A stretch of 64,000 bases of DNA, taken from contig OX597819.1 of assembly GCA_951406725.2 (NCBI GenBank), positions 61,380,001 to 61,444,000 on the forward strand, given 5' to 3'. Positions within the stretch are counted from its first letter, which is position 1. Each line of letters begins with the position of its first letter. Origin of the DNA: Octopus vulgaris. Lineage: Eukaryota. Below, one piece after another: positions 8,352 through 24,182 of the stretch. The position numbers and the translations under genes were made by a program. Below the pieces are notes generated by a model, which saw only the letters and a list, made by a program, of their open reading frames with translations, had not been told where the DNA came from and did no database searches.

Positions 8352-9320
8352 CATATATATATATATATATATATATACACATATGTCTGTGTATATGTAT
8401 ATAAATATATATATATATATATATATATATATATATATATATGTATATATATATATATATATATATATATATATATATATATATATATATATATATATAT
8501 ATATATATATATATATGTATATATATATATATATATATATATATATATATATATATATATGTATATATATATATATATATATATATATATATATATATAT
8601 ATATATATATATATATATATATATATATATATATATATATACATGTATATATATATATACATATATATATATATATGTATATATATATATATATATATAT
8701 ATATATATATATATATATATATATGTATATATATATATATATATATATATATATATATATATATATATATATATATATACATATATATATATATATATAT
8801 ATACATATATATATATATATATATATATATATATATATATATATATATATATATATATATATATATATATATATATATATATATATATATATATATATAT
8901 ATATATATATATATATATATATATATATATATATATATATATATATATATATATATATATATATATATATATATATATATATATATATATATATATATAT
9001 ATATATATATATATATATATATATATATATATATATATATATATATATATATATATATATATATATATATATATATATATATATATATATATATATATAT
9101 ATATATATATATATATATATATATATATATATATATATATATATATATATATATATATATATATATATATATATATATATATATATATATATATATATAT
9201 ATATATATATATATATATATATATATATATATATATATATTATATATATATATATATATATATATATATATATATATATATATATATATATATATATATA
9301 TATTATATATTATATATATA
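8352..9320. repeat. (TA)n microsatellite, ~970 bp
   Basis: Directly visible. Confidence 0.98.
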
Positions 9321-9774
9321 TGGTTCCGTTTTCAGCAGAGAAAGACGTGATTGCCTTTGCTCTGTGAAAAAGTCTGCATAGAACGGCGAAATAACCCACT
9401 GTAGTTGCAAAACGTAAAACTCTAAGTCATAGAGATCACTACAACACTTTGGTTAAAAATATTTTTAAAAATATATATATAAATATATACATATACACAG
9501 TAATTTTCATTTTCGCCGAAACGCACATGGTGCAAAAATAACTGAATCAAGTTATCTCCTGCAAGAAAGAAAAAAGAAGCATCTCTCCTGAAAAAAATCC
9601 CGTAAACCAAAAAAATAATCCAGACCACATTGTTGGATTAAGTATCAATTTCATCTATTTCATATTTTATTTATTATTCTATTTTATCTTTCACTTTGGC
9701 CCACATCTTAGTTAAAGTTGCGATCGTCATTTGGTTTGTTTACATTTTCAATAACTGTTCTCGATATAATAATA

Positions 9775-11210
9775 TCCCAGATACTCTATCTTCTAATTAG
9801 CCTTAAGATTAAATTAAATAACGTTTAATATTGATACCGTCAAATTAGCCTTAGGATTAAATTAAATAACGTTTAATATAGTTTAATATTGTTAATAATT
9901 ATTCTTAATTAGCCTTAAGATTAAATTAAATAACGTTTAATATTGATACCGTCAAATTAGCCTTAGGATTAAATTAAATAACGTTTAATATAGTTTAATA
10001 TTGTTAATAATTATTGTTAATTAGCCTTAAGATTAAATTAAATAACGTTTAATATTGATACCGTCAAATTAGCCTTAGGATTAAATTAAATAACGTTTAA
10101 TATAGTTTAATATTGTTAATAATTATTATTAATTAGCCTTAAGATTAAATTAAATAACGTTTAATATTGTTTTAATATTGTTAATAATTTTTCAGATACT
10201 CTATCTTCTAATTAGCCTTAAGATTAAATTAAATAACGTTTAATATTAATAACGTCTAATTAGCCTTAGGATTAAATTAAATAACGTTTAATATTGTTAA
10301 TAATTATTGTTAATTAGCCTTAGGATTAAATTAAATAACGTTTAATATTGTTTAATATTGTTAATAATTACTGTTAATTAGCCTTAAGATTAAATTATAT
10401 AACGTTTAATATTGTCTAATATTGTTAATAATTATTGTTAATTAGCCTTGGGATTAAATTAAATAACGTTTAATATTGTTTAATATTGTTAATAATTATT
10501 GTTAATTAGCCTTAAGATTAAATTAAATAACGTTTAATATTGTTTTAATATTGTTAATACTTCTTCAGATACTCTATCTTCTAATTAGCCTTAAGATTAA
10601 ATTAAATAACGTTTAATATTACCCACACTCTAATATAATATTAACATTGCTAATATATTTTCAGATACTCTATCTCCTGATTAGCCTTAAGATTAAATAA
10701 CGTTTTTATCCACACTCTAATATAATATTAATATTGCTAATATATTTTCAGATACTCTATCTTCTAATTAGCCTTAAGATTAAATTAAATAACGTTTAAT
10801 ATTAATAACGTCTAATTAGCCTTAAGATTAAATTAAATAACGGTTAATATTGCTTAATATTGTATATATAATTTTTCAGATACTCTGTCTTCTAATTAGC
10901 CTTAAGATTAAATTAAATAACGTTTAATATTACCCACACTCTAATATAATATTAATATTGCTAATATATTTTCAGATACTCTATCTCCAAATTAGCCTTA
11001 AGATTAAATAACGTTTTTTTTACCCACACTCTAATATAATATTAATATTGCTAATATATTTTCAGATACTCTATCTCCTAATTAGCCTTAAGATTAAATA
11101 ACGTTTTTACCCAAATAACGTTTTTACCCAAATAACGTTTTTACACAAACTTTAATATTGTTAATATTTCTTTTTCAAGTACTCTATCTTCTAATTAGCC
11201 TTAATATCTT
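9775..11210 (+). repeat. AT-rich modular tandem array in the putative 5' UTR of element 1
   Basis: About 20 copies of AATTAGCCTTA(A/G)GATTAAA(TTAAA)TAACGTTT with alternating linker modules. Confidence 0.9.
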
Positions 11211-11265
11211 CCTGTCTTCTCTCGAACATAATTAGATAGATAAACGGATAGACGGATTATCCAGC

Positions 11266-21267: not shown

Positions 21268-22019
21268 AAAAAAGACTGCTGTTCAGCTGCCGCCCTTCTC
21301 ACATCTGGGTGAAGCTGGCCACCTGTTGGGTTTCCGCGCACCACATCTGCATACCGTCTTTCAGTAGTGGTCAGTGCGCTTTTTTCCTTCTTTTAACTTT
21401 TTTTTTTGTTTTTGTTCTCCCTGAGGGAGGGACCTCTGTCTCGCGTCCGTGCGGTTTTGGTAGGGCCTCCGATGTGCAAAGCGACAGTTTGCACCTTCAA
21501 CGCCGTACCAGCAGTCCCCCTCAGGTAGAATTTGCAGGTGTTTCTTTCCCTGCCCTTACAGTTTTTGCTGGGGTCCCTCTGCTTTCTCTGGACAGGGCTT
21601 CCTTTAGCCTTGATTCTGTCACCCTTTACCTCCTGCTTCCCATCAATTCCAGGGTGCCTTTCCTTTCTTGCGGCCATCGCACCTCTTTGGTCTTCAGTTG
21701 TGGTGTTGGAAGCTGGACATGTGTCATCGTTTCCCTGTGTTCCAGGCTTCTCCATTTGGCTCTGGATGCTTTCCTCATCCTTTTGGCCCTCCCTGCTGCC
21801 GTCACCTCCCAGGATGATGTCCAGGGTGTCCACATGTTGCCTGATTAGAGCGTACGAACGGATAACTTCTCTCTTCTTTCGCTCTATCTGGGCGGTGGTT
21901 CTCGAAAAATTGTTGCTTTTCAGCGCCGCAGCAATAATGTCGTTCGGCGAGTCGTCCTCAGCGATCCTCCAAGCGCGGACGAACAATTGCACCTCTCTCG
22001 CAGACCAGTTTCTTGCCAT
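21120..22019 (-). pseudogene. LINE ORF1 of element 2 (Myb/SANT-like + CCCH), two frameshifts in homopolymer runs
   Basis: WSAREVQLFVRAW...RTTAQIERK. After CKFYLRG the finger continues in another frame as CWYGVEGANCRFAH. RRYADVVR and AAAEQQSFLCMAQKIVQQLTWL are shared with element 1. Confidence 0.8.
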
Positions 22020-23723
22020 TTTCTTCTAGTGAAATATAGGAACAGAGAGAGAGATAGAGAAGGAGAGATAAGATGGAGAGGGAGAAGAGAAAGGAGAAAA
22101 GCCAGGGGGGGGATAGAGAGAGACGAGGGGATTGTCCTGAGAGAAGAGAGAAAGAGAGAAAATAAGAGGGAAAAAAGATAAAGGTGAAAGAATGGCAGGT
22201 CAGCAGGGGGAGAGTGAGCGGGATAGAGGTGTAGTAGAAAGGGACAGGGTGGAAAAGTGAGACAAGAGGGTGGACCCTAGGGGGAGCAGGGAGAAGAAAG
22301 GCGGAGAGATAAAATGGAGAGGAAGAGAGAGAGAGATGAAATGGAGAGGGAGAGAGAGAGAGGGCAGGATAGAGGTACCAGGGAGTGAAGTAAAGGGACA
22401 GAGAGGGTGGTGTGGAGGAAGGAGACAGAGAGAGGAAAAAAGAGACAGGGGGTGGTGAGCCTTAGAGGGAACAGGGAGAGGAAAGGTAGGAAGAAAAAAG
22501 GGGGAAGAGGGAGAGAGGGGCGCAACAGAGTGTAGTAAAGGGACAGGGAGGGTGGTGTAGAGAAAGAAATAAGGGGACAGAAGGGGAAGAGGAAAAGGGG
22601 TTTGACCTGTGAAGGAGCGGAGAGGAAAGAGGCAGAGAGAGGGAGGGGGAGTAACAGAGAGAGAGAGAAAGAGGGCGGTATATAGATACAAGAGAGAATG
22701 AGTGAAGTTGAGGAACTGAGAGAGGGGGTGAGGTGAGAGAAAGTTGATCTGAGAGAGATGCAGAAAGAGAAACGATGGCAGAGGGAGAGAGAGGGAGGAG
22801 GGGAGAGTGAGAGCGGAAATAGAGGGTCTGGTGGATGGGGAGACAGATAAGGTATAAACTGTATGAGAGAGATAGAAATAGAAATGTAAGAAAGAGAAGG
22901 AGAGATTATAAAGATAGAATAGCGCGTATTTTTATATCTTTTTAATTATTATTTTCTGTTTGAAAGAACACTAATGATAACAAATAATAAAAATGTATGA
23001 GAGAGATAGAAATAGAAATGTAAGAAAGAGAAAGAGAGAGTGCGTGACAGGCACGGAGGGCGAAATTATAAAGATTATAAAGATAGAATAGCGCGTATTT
23101 TTATATTTTTATATCTTTTTTTTTTTTTTTTATTATTATTTTCTGTTTGAAAGAACACTAATGATAACAAAATAAATAATATCTTCCTTACCTTACCGGC
23201 TGAGAGAGTAATTACGTGATTCCTTTTTATAAGAAAGGAAGATAGATAGACAAGACAGACCTTTTATATTCCTTAATCGTATTTTGTAAACAAAAGGGAT
23301 CTGAGTTTCGATTTAGCACATGCAACAGTTTGACGATACTTTCTGTATTTTCCTAAGCGATTTGGTATTAAGCAGCAAATTTTTCAGAGGCTTTTTTCAG
23401 AACACGCAGATATACATCAAAAACGAAAATATCCTTCTCAAAAATACTGTGTCTTGTTGATTCACAGACGAAGAATAAAATTCACTTCGATTTCGGGAAG
23501 TAACACACGTGCGTTTTAACACGTGTATTCGCGAGTATGTTCTAGTTGCAAATACTATATCAAAAGCGAAAATATTCTTCTCAAATACAGTGACTTGTTG
23601 TACTCTCACTTATATTCGCTTTGCAGACAATTTCGCTTCTGATAACATCGATCTCTGGAAGGACTTCTTTAATATTTAGGAGAGACACGTTAACACACTT
23701 GTTGTTAGTTCAGCGCCATCTTG

Positions 23724-24182
23724 TATATATATATATATACATGTATATATATGTATATATATATAATGTATATATATGTATATATATATATATATTATAT
23801 ATATATATATATATATATATATATATATATATATATATATGTATATATATATATATATATATATACATGTATATATATATATATATATATATATATATAT
23901 ATATATATATATATATATATACATACAAAGCAATAAGGGTTTAGCAACGAATTGTATATACATGTACGATATTATATAAATATATATAGTTATAGCTATT
24001 TTATATACAAAAATATATATATATAAACACAGATATAAGGCATACACATATATAAGATATAATATATACATGTATATATATATATATATATATATATATA
24101 TATATATATATATATATATATATATATACATATACATATACATATATATATATATATATATGTATAGAGACATATATATATA
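23724..24182. repeat. Degenerate (TA)n array
   Basis: Directly visible. Confidence 0.9.

Follow-up and report, generated by a model that had tools for sequence, protein, structure and literature searches.

Certain LINEs that carry an APE endonuclease insert specifically into microsatellites, Waldo among them, and a lengthened beta-hairpin loop in the APE is a feature of TRAS1, R1Bm, and Tx1L. CR1-group LINEs have a short 3' UTR with short tandem repeats and lack a C-terminal CCHC knuckle, and their insertion is ordinarily treated as non-specific. Kibi and Koshi, which are specific for (TC)n and (TTC)n, belong to the Tx1 clade (PMC4494074), and Mino, which is specific for (AC)n, belongs to the R1 clade (PMC3124438). 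Tx1 and R1 are also the only APE clades for which a 2026 paper names site-specific members (PMC13295347). An earlier reading of the present DNA from its letters alone (the sequence-only reading) had placed such elements mainly in these two clades. The endonuclease is considered the main determinant of LINE target choice (PMC4494074, PMC13295347). Insertions of bird CR1 weakly favour the 4-nt site TTCT (PMC2612034, PMC4120745, PMC13343379), and the ORF1 types surveyed for CR1 comprise PHD, RRM, CCHC, Tnp22, and esterase (PMC4120745 Table 1). Here, we describe three young CR1-group LINE families (E1, E2, and E3) in a 64,000-nucleotide stretch of Octopus vulgaris DNA (the window), which have a strong preference for (TA)n but not strict specificity.

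Three LINE families nested in (TA)n arrays

Five insertions with TA arrays at both ends had been listed in the sequence-only reading, and all were recovered with TA on both sides (Table 1); for the truncated E2 copy, given as starting at 15926, our alignment begins at 15930, 4 nt further in. E1 and E3 are 74% identical in nucleotide sequence over 3.35 kb. Another full-length E1 copy (L098) has the same starting base as the window E1 and is preceded by a TA array, the window E2 is 99.5% identical to a near-full-length E2 copy (in L091), and the E3 ORF1 is open for 302 aa in a further copy (L107). Exact 3'-end matches in the genome number 2,441 for E1, 2,189 for E2, and 1,564 for E3. For E2, 85-90% of sampled words are present in 18 sequencing runs with five organism codes, some of the runs possibly being RNA. 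A Tc1 element and two SINEs also lie within TA arrays of the window, and a decayed old relative (62243-62483, 52% aa identity to E3) lies outside TA. Serial insertion of the first three elements into one giant array, as previously proposed, is compatible with the sequence, but the G-type interruptions on the + strand are not diagnostic: they occur in all four arrays of the nest and likewise outside it, in all five arrays that were counted at 41-58 kb.

Table 1. LINE copies, their reading frames, and flanking (TA)n arrays in the window
Feature	Position	Strand	Description
(TA)n array 1	8353..9321		~970 nt, interruptions scattered through
E1, full-length CR1-group LINE	9321..15210	+	AT-rich tandemly repeated 5' UTR, ORF1, ORF2, short 3' UTR, (AATC)n tail
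E1 ORF1	11266..12177	+	303 aa; predicted N-terminal Myb/SANT-like domain and CCCH-type zinc finger
E1 ORF2, APE endonuclease and reverse transcriptase	12129..15121	+	frameshift near 13900 in window copy
(TA)n array 2	15211..15923		
E2, 5'-truncated copy	15926..17401	+	final ~1.47 kb of ~4.6-kb element; (TCAAAGTA)n tail
(TA)n array 3	17401..18087		separates E2 and E3 3' ends (tail to tail)
E3, full-length LINE	18086..23723	-	purine-rich 5' UTR, ORF1, intact ORF2, (TAAGGATT)n tail
E3 ORF2, APE and RT	18163..21174	-	1,003 aa counted from first Met; stop-free
E3 ORF1, N-terminal part	21393..22019	-	predicted Myb/SANT-like domain; ORF1 frameshifted in window copy
(TA)n array 4	23724..23921		followed by ~150 nt of other sequence, then more TA (24073-24183) adjoining a SINE
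E2-family 3' end	41515..41602	-	65 nt (41515-41579) 95.5% identical to E2, plus 23 unrelated nt 5'; inside G-interrupted TA array
E2-family copy	55468..56231	-	764 nt, 99.7% identical to 16638-17401; inside G-interrupted TA array

Family-specific enrichment of (TA)n at element junctions

Junctions were scored in 30 copies each of E1, E2, and E3, which were the first matches along contig 1 and not a random sample, and in 30 copies each of three control families: C4 (a young co-resident CR1 with a (TTA)n tail), an RTE, and a (GAT)n SINE. The 3' junction lay in (TA)n in 21/30 E1, 25/30 E2, and 16/30 E3 copies, as compared to 2/30 for C4, 4/30 for the RTE (rows L199-L202 have one common flank and are not independent), and 2/30 for the SINE; pooled, this amounts to 62/90 focal vs 8/90 control junctions (Fisher p 2e-17). 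The same TA criterion applied to 20 arbitrarily chosen 10-kb stretches gave a background of 2.4% of positions, or 9.9% of positions starting on a TA/AT step, and focal junctions almost always open on TA/AT. Among copies of at least 60 nt, the difference was 48/57 focal vs 0/24 C4 (p 2e-13), and only 12/31 focal copies below 60 nt reached the TA criterion. At the 5' junctions, TA was found in 50/88 focal vs 5/57 control copies (p 2e-9), a count from which L033, L066, L178, L184, and L186 were dropped (5' end out of reach or masked) and which is one too low for E1, since full-length copy L036 was scored non-TA and its true 5' end is in TA. For L072 and L075 the tail was parsed too far; both are non-TA either way. 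Genome-wide, on the forward strand, the tail is followed by TATATATAT in 746 of 1,132 E2 matches (66%) and, counting perfect repeats only, in at least 338 of 1,019 E3 matches (at least 33%), with backgrounds of 2.6% and 2.1%, respectively. Nests, in which copies are separated by TA alone, occurred at 10/90 loci vs ~0.7% expected.

Enrichment far beyond background at both junctions and across the genome thus bears out what the sequence-only reading anticipated. The (TA)n specificity it assigned to these CR1-group LINEs holds as a strong, family-specific preference and falls short of strictness: the sampled families range from 53 to 83%, and 28/90 focal 3' junctions fail the TA criterion. All three families exceed the working rule for target-specific elements used in PMC4494074 (>20% of flanks of one sequence type).

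Age is not the cause of the gap between the E families and C4, because only one of six further long C4 copies that are 99.5% identical lies in a TA array (by eye). The control families have 7-13% TA, 3-5 times above background, and Tc1, SINEs, and Penelope-like elements (PMC8557442) also occur in TA arrays, as they would if long TA arrays were fragile or open and caught any retroelement, with selection sparing the copies there and no aim encoded by the elements. This account is unlikely, because a host-level sink should treat C4 and the E families alike, and C4, although equally young, is nearly free of TA junctions. Given the elevated controls, the Tc1 and SINE copies in arrays of the window, and the (TA)n preference of Naiads, TA arrays are nevertheless in part a general sink.

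Joining of contigs across TA arrays, which reach ~1 kb in the window, would likewise produce false flanks and nests, and the order of the elements within the window nest could be wrong. As a source of the whole pattern, such misassembly is extremely improbable: there are thousands of copies, many with just 15-40 nt of array between the element and other sequence, interruptions match on both sides of the elements, and control families of the same assembly do not have the pattern.

Arrays that appear older than the insertions

The interruption strand is the same on both sides of the element in 25/28 cases, whichever way the element is oriented, but this test is weakened because separate neighbouring arrays also share the strand in 23/35 (25/28 vs 23/35, p 0.04). 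Profiles of interrupted 8-mers on the two sides score 0.54 vs 0.29 +/- 0.05 for shuffled pairs (n 29, p 2e-4). An abundant SINE has an internal TA tract that is split by one copy of each of the three families, and the tract is present in the 46-55 uninterrupted paralogues of this SINE in the data examined. From the interruptions common to both sides and the three split SINE tracts, we strongly infer that the (TA)n arrays predate the E1, E2, and E3 insertions. A scan for target-site duplications gave matches of 8-20 nt that include a non-TA letter in 13/88 focal copies; as the scan has no null for periodic arrays, these are not counted as evidence.

The E2 tail ends in TA, and the median array length is somewhat greater at 3' junctions (87 nt) than in the background (50-69 nt), which would allow for a degree of growth once the element is in place. 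That the elements made the arrays, by expansion of a TA seed provided by the tail or a target duplication, is nonetheless very unlikely: TA arrays are also found next to the 5' ends (50/88), which are truncated at varying points and bring no seed of their own, old interruptions are common to both sides, and the paralogous empty sites carry the tract.

Two CR1-group lineages

Pfam Exo_endo_phos(_2) and RVT_1 matched ORF2 of E1 and E3, and the APE of E2 was aligned. The 90 copies have a short 3' UTR and tails of short tandem repeats with 4- to 8-nt units, 3' hairpins appear in minimum-energy folds (without shuffle control), and visual inspection of the last 200 aa of ORF2 revealed no CCHC knuckle. 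Both the APE/RT and the tail features of the CR1 group (CR1, L2, Rex1/Babar, Crack, Zenon, and kin) are present. The RT is 40% identical to that of a stork protein (P0006, CR1 by inference only) vs 25-29% to RTE, the C-terminal ORF2 motifs are like those of the bird protein rather than R1/Tx1, and a PDB sequence search returned L1, R2, and group II intron RTs only. Membership in Zenon, which lacks ORF1 and has a poly-A tail (PMC13343379), was ruled out by the ORF1 in all three families together with their non-poly-A tails.

In trees that both lack named L2, Crack, Rex1, Jockey, R1, or Tx1 sequences, the E families group with the bird RT against three RTE rows (100/100) and fall in a subclade that excludes both C4 and the bird protein. 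In the first tree, E1-E3 were separated from C4, bird, and RTE at 54/65, which left the position of E2 unsettled; the ORF2 of E2 is 38% identical to that of E1/E3. In a quick tree of 31 rows, which the Argonauta and P0002 rows joined after the first tree had been seen, an AU test rejected E1, E2, E3, Argonauta, and P0002 as one clade (p-AU 1.6e-5). E2 and E1/E3 fall into different subclades, each closer to marine relatives without TA flanks, and the one TA-targeting lineage proposed earlier gives way to two.

A predicted Myb/SANT-like domain shared by the ORF1 proteins

All three ORF1s have a predicted Myb/SANT-like domain at the N-terminus. The sole Pfam hits were Myb_DNA-bind_4 (E 2e-5 at best, 0.011 in E1, and 0.027 in E3) and a CCCH-type finger (zf-CCCH in E1, E 0.0067), all below the curated cut-offs, and the Atlas scores are <0.9. 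Two Trp are invariant in the domain alignment, and the predicted structure has three helices (pLDDT 82). Its nearest folds include DNAJC2 SANT (Z 5.8, rmsd 3.2, 70 aligned), RAD Myb (Z 5.8, rmsd 2.9, 60 aligned), and GT-1, which tie with TetR and homeodomain folds, none being significant (Z 5.5-6). The N-termini are 51% identical between E1 and E3 over 79 aa and, though homologous, 25-27% between the E2 lineage and E1/E3 over 73 aa. None of the described CR1 ORF1 types was matched, although ORF1 type varies and does not strictly define the clade, and an ORF1 homologue search returned a single protein, named Octopus vulgaris. This predicted Myb/SANT-like plus CCCH ORF1, common to E1-E3, was missed by the sequence-only reading and is new here; a literature search, with subscription papers and supplements outside its scope, found no LINE ORF1 with Myb plus CCCH.

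The ORF1 of C4 is Cys-rich and PHD-like by eye, with no match to Pfam PHD. When 86 loci from C4 and marine relatives were searched with a profile of the Myb/SANT-like domain, no hit reached E<1; many of the relatives' ORF1s are 5'-incomplete. TA was present at the 3' flank in 0/16 marine relatives, a count that may also reflect the TA content of their hosts and the tendency of short-read contigs to end at long TA arrays.

Possible determinants of target choice

E1-E3 lie mostly inside (TA)n, likely since their own proteins nick pre-existing arrays at TpA and prime reverse transcription there, a reading to which we assign a probability of roughly 0.7. Following established LINE biology, the APE would make the nick and ORF2p would perform target-primed reverse transcription, with 1-3 nt of tail-target pairing setting the register; pairing alone is insufficient, because the C4 tail has at least as much TA microhomology. 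As TA is its own reverse complement, insertions would occur in both orientations, and each would leave two arrays that are both still targets, so that nests would build up. The preference would be set mostly by the APE through a liking for TpA in alternating A/T DNA, for which sequence or an easily melted or cruciform shape are the candidate read-outs, with the predicted Myb/SANT-like domain of ORF1p as a probable helper. In a sequence alignment, the APE beta-hairpin loops of E1, E2, and E3 are as long as those of C4 and the bird protein, which we count against this explanation. A SINE with an E1/E3-like 3' end is TA-flanked in 7/30 copies (lenient background 4.7%), lower than expected if the same ORF2p mobilised it with the same bias.

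A variant that draws on the same targeting evidence, and that we hold only tentatively, makes ORF1p the main determinant: the Myb/SANT-like domain would tether the particle by binding either (TA)n itself or a protein located there, and a relaxed APE would cut the nearest TpA. Two non-sister ORF2 lineages share both the target and a homologous N-terminus, the domain went undetected in C4, with its PHD-like ORF1, and in the marine relatives, the sampled 3' flanks of the relatives lack TA, and the SINE, for which ORF1p is not required, shows the weaker TA bias; TRE5-A, whose ORF1p binds TFIIIB, provides a precedent (PMC5633606). The correlation, however, comes from two lineages in one genome, the domain call is below the Pfam cut-off with weak fold matches, and the incomplete ORF1s and truncated contigs of the relatives temper their negative results. 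It is conceivable, if rather doubtful, that two separately descended octopus CR1-group lineages each gained this ORF1p domain, or exchanged it between them, where their relatives have a PHD-type region, and were thereby steered into (TA)n. Under such a gain, they might, speculatively, constitute a third APE clade with target choice, exerted via ORF1p and not the endonuclease.

Significance and comparison with known systems

With the E families, a strong choice of microsatellites is seen in two lineages of the CR1 group. Targeting families reside beside the young, non-targeting C4 in one genome, which makes domain-swap testing possible, and whether LINE target choice is set by the endonuclease, ORF1p, or DNA shape thus becomes a testable question. 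The finding is further relevant to the tolerance of repeat-rich genomes for thousands of new insertions, where TA arrays would act as self-renewing safe sites, and to the length and nesting of TA arrays in octopus. Within a literature search that left Repbase, Dfam notes, subscription papers, and supplements outside its scope, no CR1-group element targeting (TA)n was found.

E1-E3 resemble bird CR1 in having an ORF2 with APE and RT, a 3' UTR that is short and ends in a short tandem tail, and 5' truncation (PMC2612034, PMC4120745, PMC13343379), but differ in their strong microsatellite preference and in their ORF1, for which Myb/SANT-like and CCCH domains are predicted; the main text of the ORF1 survey (PMC4120745) contains none of the words Myb, SANT, or CCCH. 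ORF1p also takes part in target choice in TRE5-A of Dictyostelium, which is, however, position-specific at tRNA genes via TFIIIB and neither microsatellite-targeted nor CR1 (PMC5633606). Among Penelope-like elements (Naiad and Neptune), Naiads have a strong (TA)n bias, are present in cephalopods, and have target duplications hidden by the array, as for E1-E3 (PMC8557442), yet Naiad and Neptune belong to a different retroelement class with a GIY-YIG endonuclease, no APE, and no ORF1. Like Kibi, Koshi, and Mino, E1-E3 are APE LINEs that enter a simple repeat, but they belong to another clade, have another target, and show a leaky bias.

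TA arrays around LINE insertions in the window

The sequence-only reading had described five LINE insertions with TA arrays on both sides, and all five were borne out by reading of the window (8000-24700, 41100-42200, and 54400-58900), repeat scans, and self-comparison. They belong to three young families (E1, E2, and E3), and Pfam identifies APE and RT domains in the window LINEs. E1 and E3 are kindred elements, and their 5' UTRs are unrelated.

Features of the window, with coordinates and strand
Feature	Coordinates	Strand	Description
E1	9321-15210	+	full length; one frameshift in ORF2; (AATC)n tail
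E1, within 5' UTR	9794-11150		AT-rich tandem array, units of 48-112 nt
E2	15926-17401	+	5'-truncated; (TCAAAGTA)n tail
E3	18086-23723	-	full length; ORF2 open for 1,003 aa; (TAAGGATT)n tail
E3, within 5' UTR	22030-23130		long tract with pyrimidine/purine skew
Further E2 copies	at 41515 and 55468	-	TA array on each side
Decayed relative	62243-62483		outside TA
Tc1-family transposon	56471-58063	-	near-perfect terminal inverted repeats (39 of first 40 nt agree); 339-aa open frame; TA array on each side; adjoins E2 copy at 55468
(GAT)n-tailed SINE	54882-55141	-	TA-flanked
(GAT)n-tailed SINE	58238-58601	+	TA-flanked
Very abundant SINE-like repeat	24183-24700, 28240-28720, 32866-33293, 51490-51936, 59014-59421, others		internal TA/CA tract
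Mariner-like transposase remnant	61100-62240	+	stops and frameshifts, by eye; Pfam HTH matches only
Pif1-helicase 2B domain fragment	30462-30980	-	probably a Helitron remnant
Open frame	43790-44815	+	no Pfam match; 3' part (~44160-44815), with hydrophobic stretch, looks like a host exon

E1-E3 junctions are enriched in TA arrays

Exact 29-31-nt 3'-end patterns matched 2,441 E1, 2,189 E2, and 1,564 E3 copies in the assembly (2.80 Gb, 227 contigs), about equally on both strands. Three families from the same genome served as controls: C4 (2,848 matches), a young family of CR1 type that ends in (TTA)n and whose ORF2 is 28-30% identical to those of E1-E3; an RTE (903 matches); and the (GAT)n-tailed SINE (7,824 matches). 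Samples, controls included, are the first 30 matches per family along contig 1 rather than random draws, and a junction was scored as TA when at least 70% of steps within 20 nt beyond the tail were TA or AT.

Comparison with background, the check proposed by the sequence-only reading, revealed enrichment: 3' junctions scored as TA in 21/30 E1, 25/30 E2, and 16/30 E3 copies, versus 2.4% of 398,720 background positions (20 stretches of 10 kb; 9.9% for positions on a TA/AT step) and 2/30 C4, 4/30 RTE, and 2/30 SINE copies, the last a weak bias. The 5' junctions were in TA in 17/29, 18/30, and 15/29 copies, respectively, versus 1/27 for C4 and 4/30 for RTE. Among copies of at least 60 nt, 48/57 from E1-E3 were in TA versus 0/24 from C4; in a set of six C4 copies that were long and 99.5% identical, one lay in a TA array. 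Forward-strand counts across the genome cover E2 and E3. A perfect TATATATAT follows within 8 nt of 746 of 1,132 E2 tails (random, 2.6%), a pattern that may take in the last TA of E2's own tail, and within 4 nt of 338 of 1,019 E3 tails (random, 2.1%), a lower bound that omits three-unit tails and interrupted arrays.

From these sample and genome-wide counts against controls, the TA bias of E1-E3 is therefore strong, family-specific, and leaky. The claimed (TA)n specificity holds as a preference and fails as a strict rule, for example among copies shorter than 60 nt (12/31 in TA). That the arrays are a passive sink is unlikely.

About a third of the sampled E1-E3 copies (L002-L090) are tiny (30-55 nt), begin at almost one base, the 5' edge of a predicted 3' hairpin, and are far less TA-biased. 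A sister subfamily of E2, 85-87% identical and with another tail, is flanked by TA at L108:3288-3876 and weakly so at L169:2848-3029.

Probably pre-existing arrays and nested insertions

Where the interruptions of both flanking arrays were biased to one strand, that bias agreed in 25/28 cases, in either element orientation; this agreement is partly regional, because separate neighbouring arrays agree in 23/35 (difference, p 0.04). Interrupted 8-mer profiles of the two flanks had a similarity of 0.54 versus 0.29 in shuffled pairs (n=29, p 2e-4), a null that leaves the regional effect in. Three of 76 testable E1-E3 copies, one per family (L015, L051, and L085), split the internal TA tract of the abundant SINE, and the same tract is present in 46-55 uninterrupted paralogues within the sampled data. 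The other paralogous empty-site matches (L088 and two of C4) are non-TA sites. Seeding of the arrays by the elements is very unlikely: TA arrays also flank 5' ends truncated at many different positions, where the element supplies no seed.

A second E-type copy, with TA alone between, occurs at 10/90 loci (~8 distinct; ~0.7% expected), so the window nest is typical of nests in these families; its order is provisional, and it may derive from one array. Misassembly across the arrays is a highly improbable source of the pattern. Locus L109 (G000:C1:113750000-113759999), where the E2 3' end recurs three times exactly 1,574 nt apart alongside one inverted copy, is a tandem amplification of a unit containing E2.

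TA bias occurs in two lineages

Anatomy and identity give good support for placing E1-E3 in the CR1 group. ORF2 identity is 73% between E1 and E3 and 38% between E2 and either. The nearest named relative of the window ORF2s comes from Argonauta hians (63% over the RT region), which groups with E1 and E3 (100/100), and that of the ORF1s is an ORF1-like protein of Octopus vulgaris. A quick midpoint-rooted tree of 31 rows, including relatives from marine metagenome contigs, has C4 and a stork RT in one clade and E1-E3 with marine elements in the other (SH-aLRT 100). Membership in the CR1 clade proper is likely and less secure than membership in the group, as reference sequences for L2, Crack, Rex1, Jockey, R1, and Tx1 are absent from the tree.

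Within their clade, E2 joins L270, L272, L274, L275, and L276 (84), and E1 and E3 join a different group (92). A single clade of E1, E2, E3, the Argonauta element, and protein P0002 was rejected (p-AU 1.6e-5), so the single TA-targeting lineage envisaged earlier was not upheld. A TA array at the 3' flank was found in 0/16 relatives with a readable flank, on short-read contigs biased against TA flanks.

ORF1 proteins combine predicted Myb/SANT-like and CCCH regions

In all three ORF1s the N-terminal ~70-90 aa match Myb_DNA-bind_4, short of the cut-off (E 2e-5, 0.011, and 0.027), and one or two predicted fingers of CCCH type come next. The E2 domain has a predicted three-helix fold (pLDDT 82); SANT, Myb, and GT-1 domains are among its closest solved folds, on a par with different three-helix folds, and none of these matches is significant. 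Atlas returns Myb/SANT clusters (scores 0.81-0.86) as a lead only. A profile of the three domains had no match at E<1 in 86 loci (C4 and marine relatives), several with incomplete ORF1s. The Myb/SANT-like plus CCCH combination is a candidate new ORF1 architecture.

Marine elements in the clade of E1-E3 have mostly CCCH-type ORF1s. In a wide marine CR1 subclade (L257-L277), the ORF1s have CCCH fingers in tandem, in some cases with PHD fingers as well; CCCH does not appear in the list of ORF1 domains given by PMC4120745. The L270 ORF1 carries PHD fingers; by eye, Cys-rich regions resembling PHD can be made out in C4 and L274, neither of which matches Pfam PHD.

Determinants of targeting

Nearly all junctions open on TA or AT and share 1-3 nt with the tail. 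Together with known LINE biology, this suggests that target-primed reverse transcription would start from a nick in a TpA step. Tail pairing as the selector is ruled out, because C4 has a tail richer in TA and is not targeted. We favour element-encoded targeting of pre-existing arrays (probability roughly 0.7), with APE, the usual determinant of LINE target choice (PMC4494074, PMC13295347), as the main factor and ORF1p as a possible helper. ORF1p as the main determinant, an overlapping reading, is conceivable but rather doubtful. Pointing away from APE, the APE hairpin loop of E1-E3 is not lengthened, one bias is common to two distant APEs, and only 7/30 copies of a SINE whose 3' end is E1/E3-like have TA flanks, although the true LINE partner of this SINE may differ.

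The very abundant SINE-like repeat has a 3' end resembling that of E1 and E3, which suggests a LINE-SINE pair, and E1-E3 also insert into the internal tract of this repeat.

Comparison with known systems

Kibi and Koshi are microsatellite LINEs, discussed with a 20% rule for target-specific elements (PMC4494074), and bird CR1 has a weak TTCT bias (PMC2612034). (TA)n is preferred by Naiad Penelope-like elements (PMC8557442), and microsatellite-associated MITEs occur in pineapple (PMC8449440). In the available sections of PMC3124438, PMC10294476, and PMC9115989, Mino is the sole relevant item. TRE5-A ORF1p binds TFIIIB (PMC5633606); the main text of two papers on LINE ORF1 types mentions neither Myb nor SANT nor CCCH (PMC4120745, PMC13343379). 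Thirteen CR1 families were recently active in O. vulgaris, with targets unmentioned in the accessible text (PMC13282606). The literature searched, with Repbase and older target-specificity papers outside its scope, yielded no TA-targeting CR1. TA targeting by E1-E3 is real and strong, and apparently unreported. It places a microsatellite-targeting APE LINE, in two lineages, within a group not credited with such targeting.
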